The notes under the pieces were generated by a model, which ran no database searches, was not told where the DNA came from, and saw only the letters and a program-made list of their open reading frames with translations. Positions 17,625 through 36,282 of a stretch of DNA of 47,155 bases are shown in pieces. Origin of the DNA: Promethearchaeota archaeon. Its GTDB lineage: Archaea; Asgardarchaeota; Lokiarchaeia; Sigyniarchaeales; SOKP01. Position 1 is the first letter of the stretch; every line of letters begins with the position of its first letter. Location of the stretch: positions 1-47,155 of the forward strand of contig JAEOTA010000041.1 in assembly GCA_016840085.1 (NCBI GenBank), given 5' to 3'. A program made the position numbers and the translations under genes.

Positions 17625-17824
17625 AATTTACTTGTAATTATTTATTTCACCTTATCATATATTAAAGTATTATAAAAAACAACAGTAAAGAAGCAGAACC
17701 TAACTAAATTCCATTATTTATTTTATAGATTATTAGAAAAAGTTTTATTATTAAATGAATGAATTTCATATTAATTTGAAAGTTGATTGCTTCTACTGAG
17801 CAAACAAAGAAAGAGGGAAATAAT

Positions 17825-18949
17825 ATTCGATTACTTGAATATGAAAGCAAAAGAATTTTCAGTAAATTTGGGATTCCTTTAGCAAACAATATAATTATTG
17901 AAAAGGGAGAAAATATAGAAGAAAAAATAAAGCAATTCACATTTCCTGCAATTGTTAAGTCTCAAATCGCTATTGGAAGTCGAAAGAAAGCTGGATTGAT
18001 AAAAATAGCTAATTCTAAGGAGGAAGCAAAATCTCTCTGTAATGAATTTTTTAATAAAGAAGTTGCTGGTTACCAAGTAGAGGCTATTCTTATAGAAGTA
18101 TTAGCTCAAATTGACCATGAATATTATTGCTCAATCGCCTTAGATGCATCAAGGAGACAATTTTTTATTATTGCAAGTAAAAAAGGTGGAATTGACATTG
18201 AAGAGATATCTAAAACCAATCCTGAAGCAATAATAAAGGAAAGTTTTACTTTAAGTGGAGGCTTATCAGAAGATCTCGCTAAAAAAGTTTCAAAACAGTT
18301 AGGCTTTACAGGAGAGCTCTTGGATTCTACAATAAATTTATTTAAAAAATTATGGGAAATTACTAAAAGCGTTGAAGCACAGCTTGTAGAGATAAATCCG
18401 TTAGTTCTTACTCCTTCTGGATTAGTAGCAGTTGATGGTAAAATGATATTAGATGATGATACTGCATTTCGACAACCAATCGTTCAAGAGTTACAAAACA
18501 AAAAACTTACATCATTAGAAAAATTAGCGAAAGAAGCTGGTTTTTCATTTGTAGAACTCTCTGGTGATATTGGTATTTTAGCAAATTGAGCTGGATTAAC
18601 AATGGCATTATTGGATGTTTTATCAGAATTAGGATTAAAACCTGCAAATTTTTTAGATGTAGGCGGTGGAGCAAGTAAAGAACGGGTATATAGCGCTTTA
18701 GAATTGTTATTTAAAATGAACCCTAAAGCAGTATTAGTAAATATTTATGGTGGCATTACTCGATGTGATGTAGTTGCAGAAGCCATAATTCAAGCATTAG
18801 AGGATTTTAAAGATAATCCTCCTATGGTAATAAGATTAACTGGCACAAATGATAAAGAAGGAATCGCCCTTCTTAATGATGCAGGAATTACTGCTTTTCA
18901 AAATGTAATAGATGCTATACAAAAAGTAAAAGAGGTTATAGGGGGATAA
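17825..18949 (+). pseudogene. sucC: Succinyl-CoA synthetase beta-like subunit interrupted by an in-frame TGA (18587-18589)
   Basis: The two ORFs are in one frame: GILAN*AGLTMA versus conserved NGAGL; also GGIDIEE, EINPL, PANFLDVGGGA, GGITRCD, RLTGTN. The expected Met position is ATT (17825); an upstream TTG lies at 17783. Confidence 0.8.
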
Positions 18950-19917: not shown

Positions 19918-21156
19918 ATGAGGAAAGTAGCTATAATTGGGGTAGGAATTACTCCATTTAAAACAAGATATTTAGATAAGACATATTTCGAACTTGCTTA
20001 TGATGCAACAAAACTGGCTCTGGAAGATGCGAATAAGAATGGTGCGGAAATAATCCATAAAGATCTTCAGTCTACTGTATATGGAATATATAATGAACTT
20101 TTTGAACGACAATTCATGCCTGATATTTTTATTAACTCATATTTGGGTTTAAATAATAAACCAGGAGTTAGAATTGCTACTGGAGGTGCAACTGGTGGCT
20201 ATACAGTTCGCACGGCTTATGCTGAAATCGCTTCGGGATTATCTGATTTGAATCTATGTCTTGGGGTAGAGAAGTGTAATGATTGTTATGATGAACAAAC
20301 AGGAACTACTACACCTGAAGTGCTTAACTCTATAGCATATTCAACAGATATGACGTATGAATATCCTATGGGGGTGATGGCAGCAAGCTCTTATGTCAGT
20401 ATGGTAAATGCTCATTTTGAGGAATTTGGGAATCCTACAGAAGAACAAATGGCACTGGTATCAGTAAAAAATCATGGAAATGCGATGAATAATCCTAAAG
20501 CTCAATCACCAATGAAGATCACAGTAGAAGATGTAATAAATTCGAGAATTATATGTTACCCATTTAAATTGTTAGATTGCTGTTTATATTCAGAAGGATC
20601 AGCGGCATTGATTTTAGCAAGTGAAGAAAAAGTTAAAGAGTTAAAGGTTAAGAATCCAATTTGGATAATAGGGATCGGTGCAGCGAATACAGATTGTTTT
20701 ATAGGGAATAGAGAAGATATGGGAAGATTATATTCGAATATCTATGCGGCAAAAGCGGCATATAAAATGGCAGGATTAGATTACGATAAAATTAAAAGCC
20801 AAATTGATTTAGCAGAATTACATGATGCATTTTCTGGGCAAGAAGTTATATCTTACGAAGAATTAGGTTTTGTTCCTTTCGGGGAAGGTGGTAGATGGAT
20901 TGAATCAGGAGGTCCGCTAATGGATGGTGAAGTACCATGTTGTCCATCAGGAGGGCTCATTGGATGTGGTCATGCGGTAGGTGCAACAGGAATTATGTCT
21001 ACTGGAGAAGCTGCACTTCAATTAAGAGGAAATGCTGGAAAACATCAGGTAAAAACAATTGAAAATGGAAGGGCTATTTCCCATTCTATTGGAGGCCCAG
21101 GTGCGGCATATGCTGCTATAATTGTAATGGAAAATGAGGAGGGGATGAAAAAATAA
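19918..21156 (+). CDS. SCP-x type thiolase-superfamily protein lacking the nucleophilic Cys
   Basis: KNHGNA..NPKAQ, LLDCC..SEGSAA, ELHDAF, PSGG, GHAVGATG; nucleophile loop reads IATGGATGG. Confidence 0.85.
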   Translation: MRKVAIIGVGITPFKTRYLDKTYFELAYDATKLALEDANKNGAEIIHKDLQSTVYGIYNELFERQFMPDIFINSYLGLNNKPGVRIATGGATGGYTVRTAYAEIASGLSDLNLCLGVEKCNDCYDEQTGTTTPEVLNSIAYSTDMTYEYPMGVMAASSYVSMVNAHFEEFGNPTEEQMALVSVKNHGNAMNNPKAQSPMKITVEDVINSRIICYPFKLLDCCLYSEGSAALILASEEKVKELKVKNPIWIIGIGAANTDCFIGNREDMGRLYSNIYAAKAAYKMAGLDYDKIKSQIDLAELHDAFSGQEVISYEELGFVPFGEGGRWIESGGPLMDGEVPCCPSGGLIGCGHAVGATGIMSTGEAALQLRGNAGKHQVKTIENGRAISHSIGGPGAAYAAIIVMENEEGMKK

Positions 21157-21650
21157 TGAGTAATGAATTTCAAGCGCATGAAATTAGAGACATAATGAAG
21201 ATAAATTATAAATATACGATGGGTGGACAATCCAAGTTTTTTTTAGAATTAATGAAGAATAAAAAGATTTTGGGTGCAAAATGTACAAAATGCGGGAAAA
21301 TTTGGATGCCACCTAGAATTAATTGTTCAGAATGTTTTGTTCCCACTGAATGGTACGAAGTCAAACAAACAGGTATAATTGAAGTAAGTACAATAGTATG
21401 GTTCACTACATCAGCTTTCATTAAAAATATACCCTATGCTACTGGATATATTAAATTAGATGAAGCTGATACTGCATTATTACAAGGGATTTTCTCCGAA
21501 AATTTAGTACCTTCCAAGATTAAAAAAGGAAAACGAGTAAGGGCTGTGTTTCAAAAAGAGAGAGAAGGAAAAATGACTGATTTTTTCTTTGTCCCTGAAG
21601 ATGAATATTTAAATTGGATAAGTAAACCTGAATATGAAGGAGGAGAATAG
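21156..21650 (+). CDS. DUF35 Zn-ribbon/OB-fold thiolase partner
   Basis: CTKC...PPR..CSEC zinc ribbon followed by an OB-fold; TAATG overlap with the thiolase. Confidence 0.88.
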   Translation: MSNEFQAHEIRDIMKINYKYTMGGQSKFFLELMKNKKILGAKCTKCGKIWMPPRINCSECFVPTEWYEVKQTGIIEVSTIVWFTTSAFIKNIPYATGYIKLDEADTALLQGIFSENLVPSKIKKGKRVRAVFQKEREGKMTDFFFVPEDEYLNWISKPEYEGGE

Positions 21651-21652
21651 AA

Positions 21653-22024
21653 TTGGGAGTTGCACGAGAAAATTTAATGAAAATAGTTGAAAGAATGAAC
21701 AAAAAACCTAAAGCTCTCCAAGTGTTTGTGACAGATATTGGCGGAAAACCAGTAAATTGGAATATGACATTTCAATTTAATTTGAACGAGGAAGATCCAT
21801 TTTATTTGGTAATTAAAGATCAAGAAATAGTTCTCAATACAGGAACTTCACAAAATGCTGAAATCGTCATGTCAGGAGACAACAACGCTATTACAAAAGT
21901 CTGTCAAGGTAAAGGGGACTTTACTCACGCAATCAGTCGTGAAGAAATCACTGTAGAAAAAGGTAAAGTTATGGATGTTATTAGGCTTACAAGAGCAATA
22001 ACCATTGTTCTAAAAACAGGGTAA
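21653..22024 (+). CDS. SCP2 sterol/lipid-binding domain protein
   Basis: FQFNL...FYLVIKD...AEIVMSG...EEITVEKG pattern, 123 aa, GGAG upstream of TTG, thiolase operon context. Confidence 0.7.
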   Translation: MGVARENLMKIVERMNKKPKALQVFVTDIGGKPVNWNMTFQFNLNEEDPFYLVIKDQEIVLNTGTSQNAEIVMSGDNNAITKVCQGKGDFTHAISREEITVEKGKVMDVIRLTRAITIVLKTG

Positions 22025-22205
22025 CTATATTCATCTCATTTTTTTTAATTCAAATTACAATTCAAGAAAAAATTTATTAAGACTTTATTTCTTCTTATTT
22101 TTCTGAAATGCCACGACTTTTTGAGGATATTATTATATTGCCTATCTTATTTTACTGTAGAAAAAGTTATTTATATATTAATTTCATAGTTAAATTTAAG
22201 AGAAA

Positions 22206-23693
22206 ATGTCTAAATTTATTGCCTTTGATATTGGCGCAAGTTCAGGTAGAACAATTGTTGGGGAATTAGAAAAAGCTCTTCTCCATTTAGATGAGATTCA
22301 CAGATTTCAGAATAAGGGAGTTCAAATTGATACTAATTTATACTGGAACGTTTTACAGCTCTATATAGAAATATTAAATGGACTGAAAAAGTATGTAGAA
22401 AAATATGGTAAAATTGTAGATGGAATAGGAATTGATACTTGGGGTGTTGATTTTGTCCTTCTGGATAAGAATGATGAACTCATTGGATACCCTTATCATT
22501 ATCGAGATTTAAGGACTAAAGGTATGCTTAAAAAAATGTTTAAGAAAGTACCAATGGAAGATATTTTTTCAGAAACAGGAATACAATTTATGGAGCTCAA
22601 TAGCTCAACTCAGTTATACTCAATGATTTTTAACAATTCTTCCCAATTATCCATTACGGATACTCTCTTGATGGTTCCAGATTATCTAAATTTCTTATTA
22701 TCAGGTAAAAAATTAACTGAATATTCTATAGCCACTACATCTCAATTATTTAATCCAATTAAAAATAATTGGGCATTTTCATTAATAGAACAATTAGGTT
22801 TAAAACCTAATTGGTTTAGAAGTATTATTCCTTCTGGAACACTCTTAGGAACTATAAAAGATTATATAGCTAAAGAAGTTGGATTAGATACCAATACTAA
22901 GATTATAGTACCTGCTTCTCATGACACAGGTTCGGCAGTTGCTGCAGTTCCAGTAGATATGGAAATCTATCTAAATGGAGAATGGGCTTATTTGAGCTCA
23001 GGAACGTGGAGTCTTTTGGGTGTCGAATTAGACCGTCCATTAATTAACAAAAAAGTGTTAGAATATAATTTTACAAATGAGGGTGGAATCAATAACACAA
23101 TAAGATTCTTAAAAAATATAACAGGAATGTGGTTGATTCAAGAATGCAAACGATTATGGGATAATAAGGGACTAGATTTAACTTGGGAGGATATTATCTT
23201 AGAAGCAAAAAAAGCTCCAGCATTTCAGTATTTTATCAATCCGAATAATTCGAAGTTTTTAAACCCAAGAAATATGATAAACGCTATTCAAGAATATTGT
23301 AAAGAAAGTAATCAAGATTCCCCCAGAACTGTAGGAGAAATTTCTAGAACTATTTTTGAAAGCCTTTCCTTTACGTATAAATCTGTTATGGAAAAATTGG
23401 AAGAATTATTAAATAAAAAAATAAAAATACTTCATATCATCAGTGGTGGTTCTTCAAACACTCTATTAAATCAATTTACCGCTAATATTCTCGATATTCC
23501 TATTAGAACGGGACCGGTCGAGGCAACCGCAATAGGAAATATTTTAACTCAAGCATATGCATTAGGAGAAATTAATAATATTTATGAACTAAGAGCAATT
23601 GTTAAAAATTCCTTTGAAATTAAGACGTATAGTCCCAAAAATTCAGAAGAATGGAACATTTTTTATTGTAAGTATAAAAGGTTCATAAAATAA
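22206..23693 (+). CDS. rhaB: FGGY sugar kinase, rhamnulokinase type (probable L-fuculo/rhamnulokinase)
   Basis: DIGASSGR, IDTWGVD, HDTGSAV, SSGTWSL, TNEGG, GPVEATAIGN. Confidence 0.85.
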   Translation: MSKFIAFDIGASSGRTIVGELEKALLHLDEIHRFQNKGVQIDTNLYWNVLQLYIEILNGLKKYVEKYGKIVDGIGIDTWGVDFVLLDKNDELIGYPYHYRDLRTKGMLKKMFKKVPMEDIFSETGIQFMELNSSTQLYSMIFNNSSQLSITDTLLMVPDYLNFLLSGKKLTEYSIATTSQLFNPIKNNWAFSLIEQLGLKPNWFRSIIPSGTLLGTIKDYIAKEVGLDTNTKIIVPASHDTGSAVAAVPVDMEIYLNGEWAYLSSGTWSLLGVELDRPLINKKVLEYNFTNEGGINNTIRFLKNITGMWLIQECKRLWDNKGLDLTWEDIILEAKKAPAFQYFINPNNSKFLNPRNMINAIQEYCKESNQDSPRTVGEISRTIFESLSFTYKSVMEKLEELLNKKIKILHIISGGSSNTLLNQFTANILDIPIRTGPVEATAIGNILTQAYALGEINNIYELRAIVKNSFEIKTYSPKNSEEWNIFYCKYKRFIK

Positions 23694-23783
23694 ATTTATA
23701 ATAATTGGAATTAAATTTTCTAATTTATTAATAAAAATAAATGATAATGTATCCTAACACTCTTGTAAGGCTTTAATTTGCAA

Positions 23784-25145
23784 TTATTTCAACTTTTCTC
23801 TTTTCTCACTATGGATTTTTCTCAAATCTTCTTGCAATTTTTCTAGAATGTCACCATGAAGTGGATAAAAATATATGAAAATAAGCCCAATCGCCGAAAC
23901 TATTATGGGGATTAAAAACATTAATATTTTTATCCCAATTATGGCGGAATCCGGCTGTATATCAGCTCCTTGAACAAAACCAAATGTCGTTAGAATCACT
24001 GTCGCTATTATGGGTCCTAGACTTTGAGCAGGTTTATGGAATAGCGCGTTAATTCCTAGAAACATACCTTCTCTTCGTGAACCATGTTCTAATTCATCTT
24101 TATCGACAGATAAATATAGAAGGGGGGTGTTAAATATTGTATATCCTCCAAAAAATGTTAAAACAGTCAAACCAATAATTGTAATTATCGGGTCATCAAC
24201 AAATAATACAGTCAAAAATAAAACAAAAGTACCAGTTACCTTAATTATTCCAAATCTTAGCATTATCCTTCGCATTCCCCACTTCGAACGTAATTTTATA
24301 CAAATCATATTTGAACTATATCCAATGATAATAATTATTACAAAATAATAGAGTAAGCCACCCTCACCAAGTATAAATAGATAAGCAAATAAATAACTTA
24401 ATCCTATTGAACCTAGAAATGCATTACAAAAGATATAGCCGATGTAGATTAAAAATGGCTTTGATTTTACAGTCTCCTTTACTGCTGTCCATAAAGGAGG
24501 TGGTTTATCTTTTTGAAATTCTGGTTTTTCTTTGCATAAATATGCTGTTAACCAAAGTAGTATGAGAGATAAGATAGCAACAATTATCATTAAGAATAAA
24601 TATTTGGTTGAAGTTGGATCAATATCTCCTAAAATTAGTAAAAATGGAATAACTACTAGGGCTCCTATGAATAGTGCAAAGAAATTACCTTTATTTCTTT
24701 CATCCAAATCTGAAGTCATCTCTGGTAATAATGCCATCCAAACAAGAACAACCAGAGTAAAAAAGGTATCAAATAAACATATGCTGATTATGTAATGAAA
24801 AAAAATAATGATTTGATTCTCAAAATCCCATGGAATCCATACTAAAAGAAAGCTAAAAATCCAAAGTGGAGCTCCATATTTTATATAGATTATTCTTCGG
24901 CTTCCCCACTTTTCTCTATTAGTTTTATCTGAAAGTTGTCCTAATAAAGGATCGTTAAATGCATTTATAACCATATATATGACTTGCCCAATAATAAAAA
25001 AAACCGGATTCAATTGTAATTTGTCATAAAAAAATTCAATATACTTAAGAGAAAATATAAATACTAATAATCCTGCAGGAATTGCTCCTAAGGAATATCC
25101 CCATAAATTTCGAGAACTAAGTTGTCTTTCTGTTTTGTTTTCCAT
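23784..25145 (-). CDS. MFS transporter, GPH/MelB family
   Basis: NAFNDPLLGQLSD, DEL..G.RREG.F.G motifs; about 12 TM segments. Confidence 0.88.
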   Translation of the reverse strand: MENKTERQLSSRNLWGYSLGAIPAGLLVFIFSLKYIEFFYDKLQLNPVFFIIGQVIYMVINAFNDPLLGQLSDKTNREKWGSRRIIYIKYGAPLWIFSFLLVWIPWDFENQIIIFFHYIISICLFDTFFTLVVLVWMALLPEMTSDLDERNKGNFFALFIGALVVIPFLLILGDIDPTSTKYLFLMIIVAILSLILLWLTAYLCKEKPEFQKDKPPPLWTAVKETVKSKPFLIYIGYIFCNAFLGSIGLSYLFAYLFILGEGGLLYYFVIIIIIGYSSNMICIKLRSKWGMRRIMLRFGIIKVTGTFVLFLTVLFVDDPIITIIGLTVLTFFGGYTIFNTPLLYLSVDKDELEHGSRREGMFLGINALFHKPAQSLGPIIATVILTTFGFVQGADIQPDSAIIGIKILMFLIPIIVSAIGLIFIYFYPLHGDILEKLQEDLRKIHSEKREKLK

Positions 25146-25257
25146 AAGAATAAAAATTACTATTTATTATATTTTAAAATTTGAAAATTGATAATAATTG
25201 AATTTATCAATTTATAAAGGTTTATTTAAAACTATAAAGACTAAAAAAATAAGAGCA

Positions 25258-26748
25258 CTATTTAATATCTAACCATACTTTTCGAAAGCTATTCATCGGC
25301 GCAAATTCAACCTTAGGGTGAACTCCTAACATCATGGTTGCACGCTTTTGAATATCATAAGGAGGCCATTCTGGTTGGCCTTTATGATTTGGGTTTCCTG
25401 TACGTGCAAAACTTATCCATGTATCCATTATATTTTTAGCCACTGTTTCTGCCTCTTCAATAGAGTCTATTGCTCCTTCTGGTATATCTGCAGTTTTGAA
25501 AGTCCCAAAAACAAATGGAATTTCAAATGTATGATAAGCCCCTCCATATTTAGATGATTTATAAGTAAAAATATAACAAAAAACATTGGATTGATGTTCT
25601 AAATGCGCCTTAAGTTGGCGAATAGTTGGAATTCCAAACATAGCATCAGAAAGTATTGCATCCCAATGCTTATATGCATTATCTGGATATTTTGTTTTCA
25701 TTATTGGTTTATAAACCTTAAGCAATTTGTCTATTCCATCATCAGTTACTCCATAATTGCGGATACGAGATCGTATCATCCCAATTATAATTTTTTTCCT
25801 CTCCTCATTAACTTGATTAAGAAAATTTCCAATAATTCCTAATTCATCTTCATTCCAACCAAGCATTAAAGGAACTTTACTTGCATTTCCTTTTCTTATA
25901 ATTTCATAAGGTTTTTCTGGGATTATTACTCCATCTACAAATGGTCTGAATGGATTTTCTTTGCCATCAGTTATAGTTCCAGCTATTTTTTTTTGAACTC
26001 TTATTAATTTACTAATTTGAACTTCTCGTAAGGTCTTAATATCCTCTCGATCAATGTGGAATTTTGATACAAGCTCTTTAGCACCTTTTCTTGATAGCTC
26101 TCTTTTATAAGAAAGTGGATTTGCTACGCCACTTTGCATAATTGCTCTGTGAAATAAACCTTTAGCTAATGGAATTGAAAGCAGAATTACAACCGATTCA
26201 CTTCCCGAAGATTCTCCGAAAATCGTAATATTATTTGGATCTCCGCCAAATGCATGAATATTCTCTCGAACCCATTGTAAAGCTGCAATTTGATCTTGAA
26301 TTCCTATATTAGGAGGAATATTTGGTAAATCAAGAAAACCTAAGGCGCCTAAGCGATAATTAAAAGTAACTAGAACAACATCCCCATAGGATGCTAATGT
26401 TCCCCCATTCAATCTTGGTCTAGAGCCAGCACCTATGAGGAACCCACCACCATGAATCCAAAACATGACGGGTCTAACTTTTTCATCCGCGCCTGGAGTC
26501 CAAATGTTAAGATATAGGCAATCCTCATTTTCCTCTTGTTCAATCGGTGTGGAATCTATATGATTTTGAGGTGCGATTGGTCCAAATTTTGTAGCATCTT
26601 TGATACCGTCCCAAGGATCCATAGGTTGTGGTTCACAAAAGCGTAAATCACCTATAGGAGGTTTTGCATAGGGAAGACCTAAGAAACACCGATGATCTAA
26701 TTGTTGAATTCCTTTTATCTTTCCATAATTAGTTGATAGAATTACCAT
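25258..26748 (-). CDS. Type B carboxylesterase (PnbA-like)
   Basis: GLPYA.PP.G.LRF, EDCLYLNIW, WIHGGG, NYRLG, FGESSG, AYHTFEI. Confidence 0.9.
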   Translation of the reverse strand: MVILSTNYGKIKGIQQLDHRCFLGLPYAKPPIGDLRFCEPQPMDPWDGIKDATKFGPIAPQNHIDSTPIEQEENEDCLYLNIWTPGADEKVRPVMFWIHGGGFLIGAGSRPRLNGGTLASYGDVVLVTFNYRLGALGFLDLPNIPPNIGIQDQIAALQWVRENIHAFGGDPNNITIFGESSGSESVVILLSIPLAKGLFHRAIMQSGVANPLSYKRELSRKGAKELVSKFHIDREDIKTLREVQISKLIRVQKKIAGTITDGKENPFRPFVDGVIIPEKPYEIIRKGNASKVPLMLGWNEDELGIIGNFLNQVNEERKKIIIGMIRSRIRNYGVTDDGIDKLLKVYKPIMKTKYPDNAYKHWDAILSDAMFGIPTIRQLKAHLEHQSNVFCYIFTYKSSKYGGAYHTFEIPFVFGTFKTADIPEGAIDSIEEAETVAKNIMDTWISFARTGNPNHKGQPEWPPYDIQKRATMMLGVHPKVEFAPMNSFRKVWLDIK

Positions 26749-26808
26749 ATTTTTTAAAAATGAGACGTTTCTTAAATCATATTATAGTATTTAAAAAAAA
26801 ATTAACAA

Positions 26809-28635
26809 TTGGCTTGGACAAATAAGTATATGGAAGGTATGAATAATCAATTTTTAAAGGTAAACTTAACTGATGAAAAAATTTCAGTGCATCCCCTTAA
26901 TAATGAAAGTCTCGAAAATTTTTTAGGGGGAAGAGGATTAGGTATAAAATTGTTATCAGAGAATATTTCAAAAGGAATTGAATCCCTGTCAAAAGAAAAT
27001 CCACTAATATTTTCAATAGGCCCTATTACGGGAAGTACAGTTCCAACAAGTGGTCGATTTTCCTTAGTTACTAAATCTCCATTAACAAACACAATATTTC
27101 ATTCAAATTCAGGAGGATATTGGGGTCCTTATTTTAAGCGATGTGGATATGATTGTTTATATATTTATGGGAAATTAAATGATGATGATAAAGGTTATGT
27201 TCTTATTGATGGCACTGATAAGGTAGAGGTTAAAGATGCTACTGATTTATGGGGATTAAATACAATAGAAACTGTTGAAAAATTAAAAGAGTTTGAGGGT
27301 AAGAATTGTCATGTACTATGTATAGGTCCTGCTGGTGAACATTTGGTTAAATTAGCCTCAATAATGAATGATGCACATAGAGCTTTTGGAAGAGGAGGAG
27401 TAGGGGCAGTGATGGGTTCAAAAAACCTAAAAGCAATCGTTGTTAAGAATGGTACTAAGAAATTTCCTATAAAAAATAAAGGTTATATGAAAAAATTAAA
27501 TGTTATAGCTCTAGATAAAATTAAAGTCACTCCTATAACTTCTCAAGGATTAGCACTTTTAGGAACTGCTGCGTTAGTAAAAGTTATTAACCTTTTTGGT
27601 ATGTTCCCCATTAGAAATTTCCAAATTGCTTTTACTGATTCTTCTAAAATAGATTTGGTTAGTGGTGAACTGTTAAGAGACAAATTTTTTGTAGAAAATG
27701 AAGGATGTTATAATTGTGTTATTAGGTGTGGTAGAATAACTGATACGGGAGTAATGAGTGGCAAAGGTCCTGAATATGAATCCCTATGGGCATTAGGTCC
27801 TTTAATAGGAATATTTGACCTAAAAGAAATTGCTCATGCGAATTACTTATGCAATAATTATGGGTTAGATACAATATCAACGGGAAGTACAATAGCTTGT
27901 GCTATGGAATTACGGCAAAAAGGGATTATTAATAATTCCTCTTTAAAATTTGGAAATAAAGATAACCTTTGTCGCATTATTGAAAAAATGGCTTTACGAA
28001 AAGATATAGGAAATGAATTAGCAGAAGGATCTCTTAGGTTTGCTAAAAGTTATTCTGCCCAAAATTATGCCATGCAAGTAAAAGGATTAGAAATCCCCGC
28101 TTATGATCCTCGAGGAGCTGTTGGACATGCATTAAACTATGCGGTCAGTTCAAGGGGTGCATGTCATTTAACTGGATTTTTAGTTGCCTTAGAAATTTTA
28201 GGTGTACCAAAACTTATTGATAGATTTTCAATTAATGGCAAATCTGATCTTTTGTTTTTAAAACAAAATCAGAGTGCGGTTGAAGATTCACTTATCATCT
28301 GCAAATTCGTTGGATACGCTTTGGGATTTGAGTTTCAAGCAAGATTTTTAAGTACAATATTAGATAAAAAAATAAACATAACTGATCTAATTACTATTGG
28401 AGAAAGAATTTACACATTGGAAAGATTATTTAATGTGAGAGAAGGTTTTACAAGAGAAGATGATACATTACCGCCTAGATTTTTAAAAGTTCCTCTAAAA
28501 GAGGGAGTATCAAAAGGAAAAATAGTGTCACTCGAACAATTACTAAGAGATTACTATAAAGTAAGGCAATGGGATGAGAATGGTATCCCTTCAGATGAAT
28601 TACTTGAAAGATTATCCATCAAAAGACTAGAATAA
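26809..28635 (+). CDS. aor: Tungsten/molybdenum aldehyde:ferredoxin oxidoreductase
   Basis: GGRGLG, KSPLT, CIGPAGE, GRGGVGAVMGSKNLKA, CYNCVIRC, PEYESL, GLDTIS, YDPRG, RGACH; real start may be ATG 26830 or 26839. Confidence 0.92.
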   Translation: MAWTNKYMEGMNNQFLKVNLTDEKISVHPLNNESLENFLGGRGLGIKLLSENISKGIESLSKENPLIFSIGPITGSTVPTSGRFSLVTKSPLTNTIFHSNSGGYWGPYFKRCGYDCLYIYGKLNDDDKGYVLIDGTDKVEVKDATDLWGLNTIETVEKLKEFEGKNCHVLCIGPAGEHLVKLASIMNDAHRAFGRGGVGAVMGSKNLKAIVVKNGTKKFPIKNKGYMKKLNVIALDKIKVTPITSQGLALLGTAALVKVINLFGMFPIRNFQIAFTDSSKIDLVSGELLRDKFFVENEGCYNCVIRCGRITDTGVMSGKGPEYESLWALGPLIGIFDLKEIAHANYLCNNYGLDTISTGSTIACAMELRQKGIINNSSLKFGNKDNLCRIIEKMALRKDIGNELAEGSLRFAKSYSAQNYAMQVKGLEIPAYDPRGAVGHALNYAVSSRGACHLTGFLVALEILGVPKLIDRFSINGKSDLLFLKQNQSAVEDSLIICKFVGYALGFEFQARFLSTILDKKINITDLITIGERIYTLERLFNVREGFTREDDTLPPRFLKVPLKEGVSKGKIVSLEQLLRDYYKVRQWDENGIPSDELLERLSIKRLE

Positions 28636-28678
28636 TAATTATATTTAAATGTTAATGAAATCTTAATTGAGGTATATA

Positions 28679-29290
28679 ATGATTGATCCTGAAACATATA
28701 AGCAATTTAAAATTACGGGTAAGATTTTAACGGATCACAGATATAATACGTCCCATTCCGGAAATATTAGTATGAGATCAGGAGGTAAGATCCTCATTAA
28801 GCGAAGAGGGGCAATGCTTGGATATTTAGAACCAGAAGACATAATTGAAACAGATCTTTATACTACAGATTCAGGAATTATGTTATCAAGTACGGAAACG
28901 GACGTTCATCGTCAAATTTATTTGAACACAGATGCCATGGCTATAATTCATGCTCATAATCCTTTCTGTGTTATCTTATCACTTATTGAAGATGAAATCA
29001 CTTGTCTTGATGCTGAAGGGATATATATGTATAGAAAGATCCCTATCATTGAAGTTGAAAATCCTGCAGGACCTACTGACGCGGCAAGAGAAGTACCAAA
29101 AGTTCTTAAAGATTATCCAATAGTTGTGGTGAGAGCACATGGAGTTTTTGCTAAAGGAAATACATTGTATGATGCGCTCCAAAATGTCACTGGAGCTGAA
29201 CAATCCGCAATGATAAGATACTATACGATGTCATCAGGTAAACCATTAAAAAGAGATTATTCTAAAGAGAAGTATTTCTCAGAATGGTAA
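28679..29290 (+). CDS. fucA: Class II aldolase, L-fuculose-1-phosphate aldolase-like
   Basis: SGNIS, SSTE..VH..IY, IIHAH and AHG Zn ligands; GAGGT precedes ATG 28679; adjacent to fucI. Confidence 0.8.
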   Translation: MIDPETYKQFKITGKILTDHRYNTSHSGNISMRSGGKILIKRRGAMLGYLEPEDIIETDLYTTDSGIMLSSTETDVHRQIYLNTDAMAIIHAHNPFCVILSLIEDEITCLDAEGIYMYRKIPIIEVENPAGPTDAAREVPKVLKDYPIVVVRAHGVFAKGNTLYDALQNVTGAEQSAMIRYYTMSSGKPLKRDYSKEKYFSEW

Positions 29291-29370
29291 AAAAATAAAT
29301 TTTTATAGTATTAACTTTCAAAATTATAATCCAATATAAATTTATTATTACAGAATCAAATTATAATAAG

Positions 29371-31185
29371 GTGTTAAAATTGGAAAAACATATAGGAGTA
29401 AAAAGGCTTAGAGGATCTATTCCTAAAATCGGCATTCGTCCTACGATTGATGGAAGAGAAAAAGGTGTACGCGAATCGTTAGAAGAGCAAACTTTAGGGA
29501 TGGCTCAATCTGTAGTAGAGTTATTATCTAGTAATTTAAGGCACCCTAATGGATTGCCAGTTGAATGTATTATCGCAGATACAACAATCGGAGGGATTGC
29601 TCAAGCAGCTATTTGTGCTGAGAAATTTAAAAGAGAAAATGTAGGTCTATCTATAACAGTAACACCTTGTTGGTGCTATGGATCAGAAACAATGGATATT
29701 AATCCTTATATACCCAAAGCAATTTGGGGTTTTAATGGAACTGAAAGACCTGGTGCTGTTTATCTTGCGGCAGTTTTGGCTGCTCACGCGCAAAAAGGTC
29801 TACCCGCGTTTGGTATCTATGGAAAAGATGTTCAAGATGAAGATGACACAAGTATTCCTGAAGATGTTGAAGAAAAAATTTTACGATTTGCGAGAGCAGG
29901 CTTAGCTGTAGCATGGATGAGGGGAAAATCATATTTATCTATAGGTGGAGTATCAATGGGGATTGCAGGTTCGATAGTTAATGAAAAATATTTTCAGGAT
30001 TATCTCGGGATGAGAAATGAATATGTAGATATGTCCGAAATTTCTAGAAGATTAAGCGAAAAAATTTATGACTATGAAGAATTCAACAGCGCTATAAAAT
30101 GGGTTAGAAAAAATTGTAAAGAGGGAAAAGATACAAATCCCCCTGAAGTTCAAAAATCAAGAGAACAGAAGGATCAAGAATGGGAAATTATGGTCAAGAT
30201 GACAATGATTTGTAGAGACCTTATGATTGGTAATCCTAAATTAAAAGAATTAGGATTCGGAGAGGAATCATTAGGACATAACGCTATAGCTGCAGGTTTC
30301 CAAGGACAACGCCATTGGACAGACTTTATGCCAAATGGAGATTTTACAGAAACAATTTTAAACAGCTCCTTTGATTGGAATGGTATTAGGCAACCTTATA
30401 TTCTAACGACTGAAAATGATGCCTTAAATGGTATTGCGATGTTATTTGGGCACCTTTTAACTCAAACATCTCAGATTTTCGCAGATGTGAGAACTTATTG
30501 GAGTCCAGAAGCAGTTAAACGTGTTACTGGTAAAGTCTTATCTGGTAAGGCAGAAAATGGATTAATTCACCTAATTAATTCCGGTTCCGCAACAATAGAC
30601 GGTACAGGACTACAAGAGATTAATGAAAAGCCTGCTTTAAAGCCATTTTGGCAAATAATTGAGGATGAGGTTGAGAAATGTTTAACAGCTACAAAATGGG
30701 ATGCGGCAATTCACGAGTATTTCCGTGGGGGAGGTTTTTCCTCTAATTTTTTAACAAGGGGAGAAATGCCAATGACCTTATCACGAGTAAATATTATTAA
30801 AGGAATTGGATTAGTACTTCAATTGGCAGAAGGATGGGCAATCAATATTCCAGAGGAAATTCATAGAATTTTAGATGATCGCACAAATAATACATGGCCG
30901 ACAACTTGGTTTGTACCAAGATTAACAAGCGAGGGAGCCTTTCAAACAGTCTATGATGTCATTAATAAATGGGGCGCAAATCATGGTTCATTATGTTATG
31001 GTCATATCGGTTCTGATCTAATTACCCTTGCATCGATGTTAAGAATTCCAGTGTGTATGCATAATATTCAGAAGGTCAGCATATTTAGACCAAGTACATG
31101 GAATGGTTTTGGAACAGAAGATTTGGAAAGTGCCGATTTTCGTGCCTGTGCAAATTTTGGACCTCTCTATGGTAATTTCAAATAA
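29371..31185 (+). CDS. fucI: L-fucose isomerase
   Basis: [67 protein letters not shown]. Confidence 0.95.
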
Positions 31186-31214
31186 AATTTAATATATAAT
31201 TACGTTGTAATAGT

Positions 31215-32588
31215 GTGTTAAAAAAAATGAACTATACTTCTGAGAAAGACTCAATAAAGAACCATCAAGTTCCCAAATGGTTTCACGATGCTAAGCTTGG
31301 CATTTTTATCCATTGGGGGCTCTTTTCTGTTCCCGCATTTGCGGTTGGAAAATTTGATTTAGGAGAATCCATGAAAAGAGGAATTGAAGAGCATTTTAAA
31401 AATAATCCGTATGCTGAATGGTATTTAAATTCTTTAAGAATTGCTGGAAGTCCAACTCAAAAATTTCATAAGGAAAATTATGGAGATAACTTTTCTTACG
31501 ATGATTTTGTCCCTATATTTAATGATGAAATAAAAAAATGGAATCCGGATGAAATGGTTGATTTATTTAAAAGAGCAGGTGCTAAATATGCTGTTCTTGT
31601 TACAAAACATCATGACGGGTTCTTACTATGGCCAAGTAAACACCCCAATCCCAAAAAGGAAGGTTATCATGCAAGACGTAATATAGTCGGTGAGCTTAGT
31701 AAAGCGGTTAAAAAAAAAGGATTAAAGATGGGATTTTACTATTCTGGAGCATTAGATTGGTCTTGGACTCCGAATCCAATTAAAGATGGTAAGAGTTTTT
31801 TAACAAATGGTCCAAGTGAAATTGAATATACTCATTATGCTAACAACCATTGGTATGAGTTAATTGATGATTATGACCCTATTATCTTATGGAATGATAT
31901 AGGATATCCACCAAATACAAATGTTTATGAAATTTTCGCATATTTTTATAACAAACATCCCGACGGTGTAATTAATGATAGATGGAGGCAATATCATAAA
32001 TCTGAAATAAAGCATCCTAAAGTTAAGCATTGGGACTTTACAACTCCAGAATATGCAATGATGCCAAATATAACTGATTATAAATGGGAAAGTACTCGTG
32101 GAATTGGCTACTCCTTTGGATATAATAAAATGGAGGATGATGACGATTATCTTAATTCGGAAAAATTAATACGAATGTTTATAGACATCGTAAGTAAAAA
32201 TGGAAATCTTTTACTTAATGTTGGACCTATGGCGGATGGTACAATACCAGAACCGCAAAAGAAAGCAATATTGGGTCTTGGAAAATGGCTTGATCTAAAT
32301 AATGAAGCAATATTTGGAACTCGACCTTGGAAAAGAGCAGAGGGAAAAACTATAGATGATATTGATCTAAGATTTACAAAGAAAAATGATGAATTATACA
32401 TACATCTATTAGATAAACCACAAGGAAATACCATAACAATCCTATCACTAAATTTAGCAGAGTCCAAAAAAATACAGTTATTAGGTGATAAAGGGAATCT
32501 AAAATGGAAACAAGATGGTGAAAACATTGTGGTTTCTTTACCAGAAGATTTATCTGAATCTGCTGCTTATGTTTTAAAAATATTTTAA
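31215..32588 (+). CDS. Alpha-L-fucosidase, GH29
   Basis: P.WF.DAKLGIFIHWG, AEWY, TKHHDGF, LWND nucleophile, INDRW, VSKNGNLLLNVGP; no signal peptide apparent. Confidence 0.93.
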   Translation: MLKKMNYTSEKDSIKNHQVPKWFHDAKLGIFIHWGLFSVPAFAVGKFDLGESMKRGIEEHFKNNPYAEWYLNSLRIAGSPTQKFHKENYGDNFSYDDFVPIFNDEIKKWNPDEMVDLFKRAGAKYAVLVTKHHDGFLLWPSKHPNPKKEGYHARRNIVGELSKAVKKKGLKMGFYYSGALDWSWTPNPIKDGKSFLTNGPSEIEYTHYANNHWYELIDDYDPIILWNDIGYPPNTNVYEIFAYFYNKHPDGVINDRWRQYHKSEIKHPKVKHWDFTTPEYAMMPNITDYKWESTRGIGYSFGYNKMEDDDDYLNSEKLIRMFIDIVSKNGNLLLNVGPMADGTIPEPQKKAILGLGKWLDLNNEAIFGTRPWKRAEGKTIDDIDLRFTKKNDELYIHLLDKPQGNTITILSLNLAESKKIQLLGDKGNLKWKQDGENIVVSLPEDLSESAAYVLKIF

Positions 32589-32610
32589 ATCTACCTTTTT
32601 TCATTTTCGG

Positions 32611-35304
32611 TTAGCTAGAAAACTCATAATAACCTGAACCAATATTAAACACCACATAATTATCCTCTTTTGACTTAAAGGTTATGCCTAAATGACCTGG
32701 TTCTTTTTCCCCGTTATCCCATATAACATTATTACCCTCTTTAATAATGGGATCTTTATCTTTAATTGGAACCCACACTTCAGCATCACACCCAACAGGA
32801 ACGATTACAGTAAGCTTGAAATTTAAATCTTTTTTCTCCCATGCACTGTAAATTAGCCCTTTAATTGTATTTAGTTTTGCTTGAGCAAAATTCATATCTT
32901 CTGATATAAATGGTTTTATTCTAAATATTTCCCATCCAGGTGTTAAAGATTTAATTCCGGCTATTGTTTTATAAAACCATGTATCTACTGATCCAAGCAT
33001 AATGTGATTGTGTGAATTCATCCCTGAGCTTTCAAGTTTTTCCCACCTTTCCCATAAGGTAGTTGCCCCTTCTCTTATCATATAACCGTAACTGGGAAAA
33101 CTCTTTTGATTTATCATCTTATATGCGATTTCAGGGTATCCATTATCAGATAGCACTTCAAAAATATATCTCGTTCCCACAATCCCGGTGTCAATGTGAT
33201 AATCATAATGCCCCTTTATAGCTTCTATGAGGTAATTCAATATCGACTTTTCTTTATTTTCTGGAACCATATTTAGGTAAAGTGGAAGGACATTTGCTGT
33301 TTGACTTATCGCCCCATCCGTAAAGGATACTTTAATATATTTATAAGTACGCATTAGAAATTCTCTATTAAAATCATTCTTAATTTCTTCTGCCTTTTCA
33401 GAGTATTCATTGCAATCACTGTCATTGCTTAAGATTTTTGCAATTTTTGAAAATATTAATGTATCATGATAATAATACCAGGTTGAAACCAAATCCAACG
33501 GCGTTCTTTTTGAAACGATACACATTGGAGGGCACCAATCACCATATTTACTTCCTACTGACAGAATATTGTCTTTAGCGTTGCTATAAAGAAAATCGAT
33601 ATAATTTTTCAATGATTCATAATGTTCTTTAAGTATTTCTATGTCATTATAATACCAGTACATATACCATGCTATTGTGATATAAGCGGAACCCCATGCA
33701 GGATCAGCAGGATATATAGGCCAATAAGGAGGAACTACATCAGAGAGACTACCATTTTCCTTTTGGGATAACTTTATATCTCGCAAATATTTAGTATAGA
33801 AACGTGCCATATCAAAATTTAACATCGCCTCCTCACTTACAAGTTGTGCATCTCCCATCCATCCATGTCTTTCATCCCTCTGTGGACAATCTGTTGGAAT
33901 GCTCATTAAATTACTTAACTGCCCCCAAATGATATTTGTATGAATCTTATTGATTAAATCATTAGAGCAAATGAATTCACTTACCTTAGGTACATTACTA
34001 TGGAAAAAATATCCTTCAATAGATTCTTTTGATGGAACACCTGGATATCCTGTCAACTCAACATATCTAAATCCATGATAAGTGAATTGAGGTTGATATA
34101 TTTCTTCTCCTTCTCCTTTAAGAATATAAATCTCGTTTACGGAGGCATTTCTATTAGTAGCATAATTTAAAGTCCCATCTTCTTTTAAAATTTCAGCAAA
34201 TTTTAAAGTTACTTGACATCCTCTAGGCCCTCGGACTTTTAAGCGGACAAATCCTGTAAAATTTTGACCAAAATCATAAACATACATTCCAGATTGAGGA
34301 CTGTCTATTTTTTTAGGTTTCATAATTTTTGTTATGCGGATAGGTTGCATTAACTGGGAAGCTAAATTATAACCCTCGACTACAGATACGTTATCCCATG
34401 CAGAATCCTCAAACTTTGGTTTGTCCCATCCTGGCATTTCAAATCGAGCATCGTATTTCTCACCATAATAGATTCCATTCTCTAAAATTGGTCCAGTTGA
34501 TACTTTCCAACTCTCGTCAGTACATATAATTCCGCTTGTACCATCTGTATATTGTATTTGAATCTGTACAATGAGTTTAGGGTAATCATACCCATAAAGT
34601 TCAACACATCGCACATTTCCTAATATCACTCCAATGGCGTTGCTTTCTTGCAGATCATTAGAAATATCATAGGTGGAATAGAGTGCAATTTTATTGTAAT
34701 CCGTCTGAGCAGGATCTAATATTCGATCTCCAATTCTGATTCCATTTAATCTCAATACATAATATCCTAATCCGCTTATATAGAGTTTAGCTGTTTCAAT
34801 TGGTTTTTTCACATCAAATTCTTTTCTTAAATAGATTGCATTAACTTCTTTTAATCTACCAAAAAGACCTCTTTGTCCTGATTTATACTGCAAATTTCTC
34901 CTTGTTTGTTTATCAACAAATTCTTTTTTGCTTATCCATTTTGCTTTCCAATCAGATTCTTCTAAAAGTGCCGTTCCAAAAGAAGAAATTTCACTAAAAC
35001 TGCTTTCTGAGCCATCTTTATCCCACCATTTTACACGCCAATAATATATATTATTACTTTTCAATGGTTTGCCATTATATTCTATACTGATATTACTATC
35101 TGAAATAACCTTTCCAGTATCCCACACATCACCTTCCTCTAAACTTGAGAGGGATTCTTCTGAAGAAACAATGATTTGGTAAGCTGATTGAGATTGATTT
35201 CTCTTTTCATGATTTAAAATCCAAGAGAAACGTGGATTTGGTATATCTAATTCGATAGGGTTTTCGAGATATTCACATCTTAAATCAAAAGGAGGTTGAA
35301 TCAT
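32611..35304 (-). CDS. Alpha-L-rhamnosidase, GH78
   Basis: DLRCEYLENP, DFGQN, FTYHGFRY, PTDCPQRDER.GW.GD, GATTLWERW, SHNH. Confidence 0.92.
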   Translation of the reverse strand: MIQPPFDLRCEYLENPIELDIPNPRFSWILNHEKRNQSQSAYQIIVSSEESLSSLEEGDVWDTGKVISDSNISIEYNGKPLKSNNIYYWRVKWWDKDGSESSFSEISSFGTALLEESDWKAKWISKKEFVDKQTRRNLQYKSGQRGLFGRLKEVNAIYLRKEFDVKKPIETAKLYISGLGYYVLRLNGIRIGDRILDPAQTDYNKIALYSTYDISNDLQESNAIGVILGNVRCVELYGYDYPKLIVQIQIQYTDGTSGIICTDESWKVSTGPILENGIYYGEKYDARFEMPGWDKPKFEDSAWDNVSVVEGYNLASQLMQPIRITKIMKPKKIDSPQSGMYVYDFGQNFTGFVRLKVRGPRGCQVTLKFAEILKEDGTLNYATNRNASVNEIYILKGEGEEIYQPQFTYHGFRYVELTGYPGVPSKESIEGYFFHSNVPKVSEFICSNDLINKIHTNIIWGQLSNLMSIPTDCPQRDERHGWMGDAQLVSEEAMLNFDMARFYTKYLRDIKLSQKENGSLSDVVPPYWPIYPADPAWGSAYITIAWYMYWYYNDIEILKEHYESLKNYIDFLYSNAKDNILSVGSKYGDWCPPMCIVSKRTPLDLVSTWYYYHDTLIFSKIAKILSNDSDCNEYSEKAEEIKNDFNREFLMRTYKYIKVSFTDGAISQTANVLPLYLNMVPENKEKSILNYLIEAIKGHYDYHIDTGIVGTRYIFEVLSDNGYPEIAYKMINQKSFPSYGYMIREGATTLWERWEKLESSGMNSHNHIMLGSVDTWFYKTIAGIKSLTPGWEIFRIKPFISEDMNFAQAKLNTIKGLIYSAWEKKDLNFKLTVIVPVGCDAEVWVPIKDKDPIIKEGNNVIWDNGEKEPGHLGITFKSKEDNYVVFNIGSGYYEFSS

Positions 35305-35505: not shown

Positions 35506-36282
35506 ATGGATGAAAAATTTCTTGAAGGGAAAGGGGCAGTAATAACAGGTGGAGCATCTGGATTTGGCAGAGGAGCCGCATATACTCTCACAGAAAAAGG
35601 AGCAGATGTCGTATTAGCTGATATTAATGAAGAACTTCTAGAAGAAACAACAACAAAAGTAGAACAGACGACAACTAAGAAAGTAATCCCGATTGTCTGC
35701 GATGTTTCAATATCCGATCAAGTAAAAGCAATGGCAAAACAAACATTCGAAGAATTAAATAATGTATTTATTTTATTTAATAATGCAGGGACCGCAGATT
35801 ATTCTCTCAGGGATATAACACAAGTAAAGGAAGTAGACTGGGATAGAATATTGAATGTAAATTTGAAAGGACAATGGCTTGTTGCGAATTCTTTATTAAA
35901 AAAAATGAGAAAACAACCGTTTGAGCCTCTTGCTGGAAAAATGATATGTACATCTTCAATGGGTACTAAACAATTATCACCAATACTCCCAACCTATTGT
36001 ATATCAAAAGTTGGTGTCATTGCAATGGCAAAATTATTTGCAAAAGCTTTAGCACCTAAAATAACTGTAAATACAATATTACCTGGTATCCATACTACGG
36101 GCATATATCTAAATTCAGAAGATCTTATAAGAACAATGTTGAAAGCGGGGAATACCAGAATCCCTCTGGGTAGGATTGGGACAGTTGAGGATGTGACAAA
36201 TGTTTTGATGTCTTTAGCATCTCCTGCTTCAGATTATATTACAGGTCAGGAATTTCTTGTTACAGGTGGATTAGCTATTTAA
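35506..36282 (+). CDS. Short-chain dehydrogenase/reductase
   Basis: TGGASGFG, NNAG, YCISK (YxxxK), YITGQ. Confidence 0.9.
   Translation: MDEKFLEGKGAVITGGASGFGRGAAYTLTEKGADVVLADINEELLEETTTKVEQTTTKKVIPIVCDVSISDQVKAMAKQTFEELNNVFILFNNAGTADYSLRDITQVKEVDWDRILNVNLKGQWLVANSLLKKMRKQPFEPLAGKMICTSSMGTKQLSPILPTYCISKVGVIAMAKLFAKALAPKITVNTILPGIHTTGIYLNSEDLIRTMLKAGNTRIPLGRIGTVEDVTNVLMSLASPASDYITGQEFLVTGGLAI

Follow-up and report, generated by a model that had tools for sequence, protein, structure and literature searches.

A candidate phosphorylative pathway for L-fucose and L-rhamnose with an aldehyde ferredoxin oxidoreductase in a Loki-type Asgard archaeon

Gene content of the locus

The stretch of DNA analysed here, called the window in the following, is the entire 47,155-base contig C31 (GenBank JAEOTA010000041.1, assembly GCA_016840085.1) of an Asgard archaeon of the order Sigyniarchaeales. 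Between positions 22206 and 35304 it holds an island of eight genes, for which a ketose kinase, a glycoside:cation symporter of the GPH family, a carboxylesterase, an aldehyde ferredoxin oxidoreductase (AOR, gene aor), a class II aldolase (gene ald), L-fucose isomerase (FucI) and two glycosidases of the families GH29 and GH78 are predicted (Table 1). We propose that this island serves the catabolism of L-fucose and L-rhamnose by a phosphorylative route, in which the AOR would oxidise lactaldehyde with ferredoxin, and we give this reading a probability of roughly 0.65. All functional statements in this study are drawn from sequence, gene order and co-occurrence.

A first-pass annotation of the same DNA had already placed eight genes in this block, and searches with Pfam and NCBIfam profiles located all eight open reading frames (ORFs) at these coordinates with agreeing assignments. 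All of them are intact and of full length. The genes aor, ald, fucI and GH29 lie on one strand and are separated by 31 nt (aor-ald), 80 nt (ald-fucI) and 29 nt (fucI-GH29), close to the spacing of about 30-80 nt and the common orientation described before. Since the AOR and the aldolase of relatives begin later, by 7 and 4 codons, respectively, the real gap between aor and ald is probably about 43 nt. The clustering is not random, as at least 16 Asgard genomes have these genes together. Inspection by eye showed no common operator or promoter motif in the AT-rich intergenic regions of the island or upstream of aor in relatives, where no formal motif search was made.

The esterase, the GH29 and the GH78 protein have no hydrophobic, signal-like segment at the N-terminus. 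For the two glycosidases this had been noticed before, and together with the presence of the symporter in the block (about 10 transmembrane segments) it is in line with the earlier proposal that oligosaccharides are imported. The GH29 protein matches the fucosidase of T. maritima (1HL8) with 414 bits, and its D228 and E279 align with the nucleophile D224 and the acid/base E266. The GH78 protein belongs to its family by its five Pfam domains, one of which is the six-hairpin catalytic domain.

Table 1. Predicted genes of the island and the gene following it in the window
Product	Position	Strand	Profile matches and start sites	Proposed role
RhaB/FucK-type FGGY ketose kinase	22206..23693	+	TIGR02627 505.8 bits	Candidate L-fuculokinase and L-rhamnulokinase
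GPH-family glycoside:cation symporter	23784..25145	-	MFS_2 176 bits, TIGR00792 130 bits	Candidate importer of fucosylated/rhamnosylated oligosaccharides or glycosides
Type-B carboxylesterase	25258..26748	-	COesterase 426 bits	Candidate deacetylase of imported glycans
AOR, tungsten-type	26809..28635	+	AFOR_N and AFOR_C; likely true start ATG 26830	Candidate L-lactaldehyde:ferredoxin oxidoreductase
PRK08660-type class II (zinc) aldolase	28667..29290	+	Aldolase_II; likely true start 28679	Candidate L-fuculose-1-phosphate and L-rhamnulose-1-phosphate aldolase
L-fucose isomerase FucI	29371..31185	+	NF008220, TIGR01089	
GH29 alpha-L-fucosidase, cytoplasmic	31215..32588	+	Alpha_L_fucos 300 bits	
GH78 alpha-L-rhamnosidase, cytoplasmic	32611..35304	-	Five rhamnosidase domains; catalytic domain 358 bits	
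Short-chain dehydrogenase/reductase (SDR) oxidoreductase	35506..36282	+	adh_short_C2 174 bits	Uncertain; membership in the module doubtful

Isomerase and kinase

The isomerase is a clear equivalog of FucI. It reaches 1084.3 bits with NF008220 (cut-off 775) and 1062.4 bits with TIGR01089 (cut-off 850), and it aligns over its full length with 3A9R (968 bits) and with 1FUI from E. coli (888 bits). The motifs TEND (E348) and FADVRTYW (D372) are kept in both alignments; we take E337 and D361 of the E. coli enzyme as the catalytic glutamate and aspartate. FucI is 65-70% and the kinase 32-48% identical to the genes of bacterial clusters, and in the FucI tree the archaeal sequences nest among bacterial ones, with one supported clade that holds most of the Asgard copies. 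The bacterial-like character of the route, as suggested in the first-pass annotation, is borne out by these values.

Two further sequences in the FucI data concern the naming and binning of genomes. Bathyarchaeota had to be dismissed as a second archaeal phylum with FucI, since the contig labelled in this way (L027) encodes the very same FucI sequence as G031, which belongs to the order of the window, and the difference is one of naming. A fucI contig of 5.5 kb assigned to 'Ca. Hodarchaeum mangrovi' falls within the clade of the Loki-type family with 80% identity, which suggests that it was either recently transferred or mis-binned.

The kinase is equidistant from RhaB of E. coli (2CGJ, 318 bits) and FucK of S. 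pneumoniae (4C23, 316 bits) and keeps the SHDT motif with Asp240. With the model of the E. coli-type L-fuculokinase (TIGR02628) it reaches 125.5 bits against a cut-off of 470.9. Kinases of the RhaB/FucK type adjoin fucI in Anaerolineales, Treponema, Brachyspira and Alphaproteobacteria. The sequence is compatible with both ketoses and does not decide between L-fuculose and L-rhamnulose as the substrate.

This is the only RhaB/FucK-type kinase in the genome. A full-length gene for L-rhamnose isomerase (rhaA, 599 bits) stands alone on contig C4, flanked by the gene of an XPD-type helicase and a glycine-cleavage cluster on one side and by the gene of a leucine-rich repeat protein on the other. Since the genome has an unlinked rhaA and yet a single kinase of this type, the island is probably a common trunk of kinase, aldolase and AOR for both 6-deoxyhexoses, which would be fed by two isomerases.

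Aldolase

The aldolase belongs to the class II superfamily (Aldolase_II, PF00596; 104.6 bits against a gathering threshold of 22.2), and its residues Glu77, His95, His97 and His158 align with the catalytic glutamate and the zinc-binding histidines of FucA from T. thermophilus (2FK5). RhaD is not among the best 25 of the 30 NCBIfam families matched. In the aldolase tree, the aldolases linked to aor, from Asgard archaea as well as from Anaerolineales, fall into a single clade. The branch between this clade and the FucA-like aldolases encoded beside bacterial fucI genes and on contig C83 of the present genome is long (1.9 changes per site) and has a support of 99. The first-pass annotation had considered a route that is chimeric with an archaeal-type aldolase. 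The first part of this idea stands, as the clade lies apart from FucA. The term archaeal-type cannot be confirmed, since an aldolase of the same type, likewise adjacent to an AOR, is found in Anaerolineales.

A tblastn search had indicated that the genome has a single class II aldolase. This was rejected, because the Pfam search found two more on contig C83. The C83 aldolases are core genes of the genus, are unlinked to the module and are kept in genomes of the same genus that have neither fucI nor rhaA nor the kinase. The PRK08660-type gene, unlike them, is present only where the module is and co-varies with isomerase and kinase across genomes. This supports the view that the island aldolase is the aldolase of the pathway, although the C83 proteins could still assist.

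The region of C83 at about 144800-154500 (L086) is a second sugar-type cluster with an AI-2/xylulokinase-like FGGY kinase, a DapA-like protein and an amidohydrolase. Its aldolases are a protein of 575 aa, in which a D-2-hydroxyacid dehydrogenase is fused to a FucA-like class II aldolase, and a 227-aa FucA/AraD-like protein.

AOR and the fate of lactaldehyde

The AOR contains both domains of its family (PF02730, 248 bits; PF01314, 429 bits) and the motif CxxCxxxC at residues 300-307, and it matches the structure 9G7J with 524 bits. About 13 AOR paralogues are encoded in the genome. The AOR tree unites those AORs of all Asgard loci that are encoded beside an aldolase in a single clade with good support; the 10 other paralogues of this genome that entered the tree lie outside it. 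Close relatives are rare: among 1.84 billion representatives, only a handful of clusters at 50% identity come near the island AOR, with 76%, 58% and then 44-49% identity, and the nearest named clusters are archaeal (Thermoplasmata and Verstraetearchaeota). With limited sampling, the AORs of Anaerolineales appeared as the sister group of those of Asgard archaea (support 92). This grouping dissolved after the 25 nearest representatives at 50% identity had been added, and it was therefore given up.

Because aor and ald are tightly linked, lactaldehyde, a toxic by-product, is probably disposed of by ferredoxin-linked oxidation to lactate via the AOR. The gene content of a related genome (G174) fits lactate as the product, as a LarA-type lactate racemase and a FAD oxidase with an iron-sulfur (Fe-S) domain are encoded there between fucI and ald. 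The same pair is found in the present genome, where the two genes adjoin each other on contig C20 and are 65% and 77% identical to their counterparts in G174; they reach 430 bits with the nickel-dependent LarA model (cut-off 460) and 389 bits with a GlcD-like model. In the open literature, we found no publication that joins the terms 'lactaldehyde' and 'aldehyde ferredoxin oxidoreductase'.

Two more observations were made on AORs outside the module. Several of those nearest to the island AOR (P0125, P0136, P0224) carry an OMPdecase/HUMPS domain (3-hexulose-6-phosphate synthase-like) as a C-terminal fusion. This is another case of an aldehyde-releasing lyase that is coupled to an AOR, and the aldehyde released is here probably formaldehyde. 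Furthermore, two near-identical AOR paralogues of the present genome adjoin genes for iron-type alcohol dehydrogenases (Fe-ADH; C24:115063-118142 and C35:33216-36298), and these neighbours could be conversion pairs between acid, aldehyde and alcohol.

Distribution of the module

FucI was found in one of 24 other genomes of the same genus and in 7 of 16 genomes from the other families of the order. The first-pass annotation had asked for a survey of fucI across archaea and for phylogenies of each gene; the survey was made for Asgard archaea, and trees were made for FucI, the aldolase and the AOR. In one draw of 300 Asgard genomes, evenly spread over the phylum, fucI is present in 7, rhaA in 16, the kinase in 25 and an orthologue of the aldolase (at least 50% identity) in 22 genomes. 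Isomerase, kinase and aldolase occur together in 13 of the 300, and five of the seven genomes with fucI also possess rhaA.

In 16 Asgard genomes, aor and ald are neighbours on the same strand. Six of these genomes have them in an operon with rhaA, which abuts aor, and no other aldolase is encoded nearby; genes for GH78, the GPH symporter, the kinase, the esterase and sometimes GH29 are found in the vicinity. The arrangement aor-ald-fucI-GH29 is present in four of the 16, including the genome studied here, and in G174 both isomerases and the kinase are united in a single cluster. Orthologues of the symporter (64-68% identity) are encoded in the rhaA-aor-ald clusters of relatives and orthologues of the esterase (53-62% identity) in the clusters L066, L068, L069, L074 and L079. 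Across genera, the orthologues are 58-96% identical.

Outside the archaea, clusters of the order fucI, kinase, FucA-like aldolase, aor and PRK08660-type aldolase are found in Anaerolineales. A draw of 200 genomes from this group gave the aldolase in 14 genomes besides the query genome. In 10 of the 12 loci that were fetched an AOR is encoded directly upstream of it, and a kinase follows once. The pair of aor and aldolase is the constant core of the module, a two-gene unit kept in two domains of life, to which the isomerases are added as exchangeable front ends. In its ancestral form the module served rhamnose, with the order rhaA-aor-ald, and fucI is a later and rarer addition.

Some relatives have additional genes in these clusters. 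In clusters of the fucI type (L010:14655-15692, L059, L072, L074) a gene of the URO-D/MtaA family (345 aa) and a second GH29 gene follow fucI-GH29; both are absent here. In L071 (10259-11176) and L080, from the genomes G240 and G307, a gene for a protein of 305-310 aa with a faint match to the creatininase family lies between ald and aor, and an SCP2 gene is located upstream of aor.

In the open literature, no publication was found that links Asgard archaea with fucose isomerase or rhamnose isomerase, and the titles and abstracts listed for Asgard archaea with fucose or rhamnose held nothing of relevance. A study of Baltic sediment reported ORFs for fucose isomerase, which were not assigned to Lokiarchaeota.

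Host and site of insertion

The genome bin comprises 4.68 Mb on 89 contigs with 30% GC and is 98.8% complete, with an estimated contamination of 7.6%. It encodes four eukaryote-like actin homologues (443, 441, 291 and 207 bits with the Pfam model Actin) and, on one contig that was examined, a TFIIB-family protein. The closest records of FucI and of the aldolase are named Promethearchaeia, Promethearchaeota, Lokiarchaeota, Helarchaeota, Thorarchaeota or Hermodarchaeota. On both sides, the island is flanked by genes (sucCD and aclBA-icd) that are syntenic with genomes of the same genus at 80-93% protein identity. The gene order in one of these genomes, G002, is GPH, sucC, sucD, GH78, CN hydrolase, aclB, aclA, icd, and in another, G024, aclBA-icd follows directly after sucCD. 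Since the flanks are syntenic, the contig is a native part of an Asgard genome (Promethearchaeia, Loki-type), and the archaeal host assumed in the first-pass annotation is confirmed.

The same annotation had named a bacterial or chimeric contig as the finding that would overturn its proposal. The archaeon would then lack the pathway, and both the contamination estimate of the bin and the high identity of FucI to bacterial enzymes could be taken as hints in this direction. However, next to the synteny on both flanks, the GC content of the contig (0.313) and its tetranucleotide use lie inside the spread of the bin, and independent Asgard metagenome-assembled genomes have the operon as well, on contigs of 102 kb and 132 kb. 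The identity of FucI also follows relatedness, with 84% within the genus and 69-75% within family and order. We therefore rejected contamination or a chimeric assembly, the probability of which appears negligible.

A copy of the GH78 gene (80% identical) occupies the same place in G002, where the rest of the block is absent. GH78 was thus already at the insertion site in a relative, and the region 19918-32588, from a thiolase trio to GH29, together with the SDR gene, was inserted as accessory DNA into a conserved cluster of tricarboxylic acid cycle genes. Among the NCBIfam models, the SDR matches the glucose 1-dehydrogenase subfamily best (188 bits, cut-off 215); its gene is not at the equivalent site in G002, nor was it seen in the clusters of the Asgard relatives. 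The trio itself (thiolase, DUF35 and SCP2; 19918-22024) lies between sucD and the kinase gene and is part of a rearranged or inserted stretch; in G002 it is located on another contig than sucCD. In sucC (17783-18949) there is an in-frame TGA at 18586-18588, with the translation ILAN*AGL. Since G002 reads ILANGAGL at this position, without a stop, the TGA is particular to the present genome, be it a mutation, a sequencing error or a case of recoding.

Proposed pathway and alternative explanations

In the proposed pathway, fucosylated or rhamnosylated oligosaccharides or glycosides would be taken up by the GPH symporter, de-esterified in the cytoplasm by the carboxylesterase and cleaved there by the GH29 and GH78 enzymes. 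FucI would convert L-fucose to L-fuculose, and RhaA, encoded on contig C4, L-rhamnose to L-rhamnulose. The single RhaB/FucK-type kinase would then form both ketose 1-phosphates, which the PRK08660-type aldolase would cleave to dihydroxyacetone phosphate (DHAP) plus L-lactaldehyde. The AOR, presumably co-transcribed, would oxidise L-lactaldehyde to L-lactate under reduction of ferredoxin, and the LarA racemase and the lactate dehydrogenase-like FAD/Fe-S enzyme encoded on C20 might convert lactate to pyruvate. The net result would be a version of the phosphorylative pathway of bacteria that is anaerobic and yields reduced ferredoxin.

One can take this proposal further. The AOR and the PRK08660-type aldolase might form a physical unit that channels L-lactaldehyde to the tungsten centre, with an aldolase that accepts both C4 epimers, and would then be the ferredoxin-linked equivalent of the fusion enzyme RhaEW. 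This would be an undescribed, ferredoxin-yielding fermentation of 6-deoxyhexoses, which Asgard archaea and Anaerolineales would have in common by transfer between domains and which would supply low-potential electrons for a syntrophy based on H2. We regard this extended version as tentative and, taken as a whole, as rather doubtful.

Several findings weigh against the phosphorylative pathway as drawn above. The score of the kinase with the rhamnulokinase model narrowly misses the cut-off of 527.95 bits, and the aldolase is only a near member of its best family, NF006413 (PRK08660; 190 bits against a cut-off of 203), which its counterpart from Anaerolineales passes with 228 bits. The gene pair for the use of lactate is unlinked to the island, no regulator is evident in the block, and a fucose mutarotase (FucU) was looked for in the genome and not found. 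Moreover, FucA and RhaD cleave C4 epimers, so that a single aldolase for both sugars requires a relaxed stereospecificity. Other findings of this kind favour a different reading, in which isomerase and kinase act as proposed, the aor-aldolase pair serves some other ketose or deoxyketose 1-phosphate, fuculose-1-phosphate is cleaved by a FucA-like aldolase from C83 and lactaldehyde is handled by an Fe-ADH or an aldehyde dehydrogenase (ALDH). The two FucA/AraD-like aldolases from C83 reach 118 and 109 bits on models of bacterial FucA, whereas the island aldolase reaches only 29.6 bits (TIGR01086, cut-off 400). Elsewhere in the genome, six Fe-ADH and two ALDH genes are possible substitutes for a step. 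In the Anaerolineales clusters, a FucA-like aldolase is encoded beside the aor-linked one, which may have a narrower or different substrate, and some aor-ald pairs (families f5 and f11; L070, L077 and L078) have no isomerase gene nearby. However, it is the PRK08660-type aldolase and not the C83 genes that co-varies with the pathway. In the six genomes with the rhaA operon, rhaA, aor and ald abut or overlap with no other aldolase in the neighbourhood, and ald is located between aor and fucI in the present genome. We consider it unlikely that the pair serves another substrate.

The block might also be directed at D-arabinose or another substrate of FucI, with the conversion of D-arabinose to D-ribulose and further via D-ribulose-1-phosphate to DHAP and glycolaldehyde, the latter of which would be oxidised by the AOR. 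The fuc enzymes of E. coli serve D-arabinose as well, and the closest solved homologue of FucI, 3A9R, was deposited as a D-arabinose isomerase. The presence of GH29 in the operon and of GH78 next to it speaks against this, as does the fact that relatives have rhaA in the place of fucI, so that we regard it as very improbable as the main role; use of D-arabinose could rather be a side activity. We also regard it as very improbable that the genes were acquired incompletely or are in decay and have no present role. The patchy distribution, the unlinked rhaA and the in-frame TGA in the neighbouring sucC, which G002 lacks, would be in line with decay, but the eight ORFs are of full length in comparison with solved homologues, the catalytic residues are kept, and the identity of the orthologues across genera indicates purifying selection. 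The phosphorylative pathway for L-fucose and L-rhamnose is therefore the reading that we prefer.

Significance

If the proposal is correct, a phosphorylative route in Asgard archaea widens archaeal sugar metabolism beyond the oxidative, non-phosphorylative routes characterised for fucose and rhamnose and documents the sharing of a whole catabolic module between domains. An L-lactaldehyde:ferredoxin oxidoreductase would be a new defined physiological role for the AOR family. In bacteria, AldA oxidises lactaldehyde with NAD under oxygen, and FucO converts it to propanediol in anoxic conditions. Here, lactaldehyde could be fully oxidised in the absence of oxygen with transfer of its electrons to ferredoxin, and for a syntrophic lifestyle this would be an extra source of reduced ferredoxin and hence of H2. 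The gene content suggests that some Loki-type archaea of coastal sediments feed on algal and plant glycans rich in fucose and rhamnose and not on peptides alone.

Comparison with known systems

The route of the E. coli type consists of FucP, FucI, FucK and FucA, followed by FucO or AldA; lactaldehyde is oxidised by AldA in the presence of oxygen and reduced by FucO in its absence (PMC13406643). The island resembles it in the sequence of isomerase, 1-kinase and class II aldolase that would lead to DHAP and L-lactaldehyde, with FucI as a clear equivalog. It differs in its archaeal host, in a kinase of the RhaB/FucK type as in S. pneumoniae, in an aldolase of the PRK08660 type instead of FucA, and in a GPH symporter that takes the place of FucP. 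An AOR adjoins the aldolase, with no FucO or AldA in the locus. In the whole window no lactaldehyde reductase or NAD-dependent dehydrogenase was found, which sets it apart from a regulon of the fucPIKAO type.

A coupling of aldolase and lactaldehyde oxidation has been described for RhaEW, a fusion of a class II-type aldolase with an NAD-linked L-lactaldehyde dehydrogenase that is found in Chloroflexi, Bacilli and others (Rodionova et al. 2013, PMC3870299). Turnover by its aldolase required the dehydrogenase activity, and genes for lactate dehydrogenase sometimes extend the regulon, so that the route continues to pyruvate; archaea are mentioned nowhere in that paper. In the island, too, an aldolase is tightly coupled to a presumed oxidation of lactaldehyde to lactate, and Chloroflexi are a group in which RhaEW occurs as well. 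In contrast to RhaEW, the island has two separate, adjacent genes, and a tungstopterin-dependent AOR with ferredoxin takes the part of the NAD-linked SDR domain.

The archaeal routes for the same sugars look very different. L-fucose degradation in Saccharolobus solfataricus and L-rhamnose degradation in Haloferax volcanii are oxidative and non-phosphorylative and proceed via a dehydrogenase, a lactonase and a dehydratase, followed by an aldolase or a diketo-hydrolase. They share with the present case the archaeal host and the sugars, whereas none of their enzymes is evident in the block.

In their known roles, AORs oxidise aldehydes that arise in the metabolism of amino acids or alcohols. The island AOR is of the same family and length as the AOR of Pyrococcus furiosus (1AOR, 508 bits) and keeps the cysteine motif for the Fe-S cluster. 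Unlike the enzyme from P. furiosus, it belongs to a distinct clade whose members are always encoded next to a class II aldolase.

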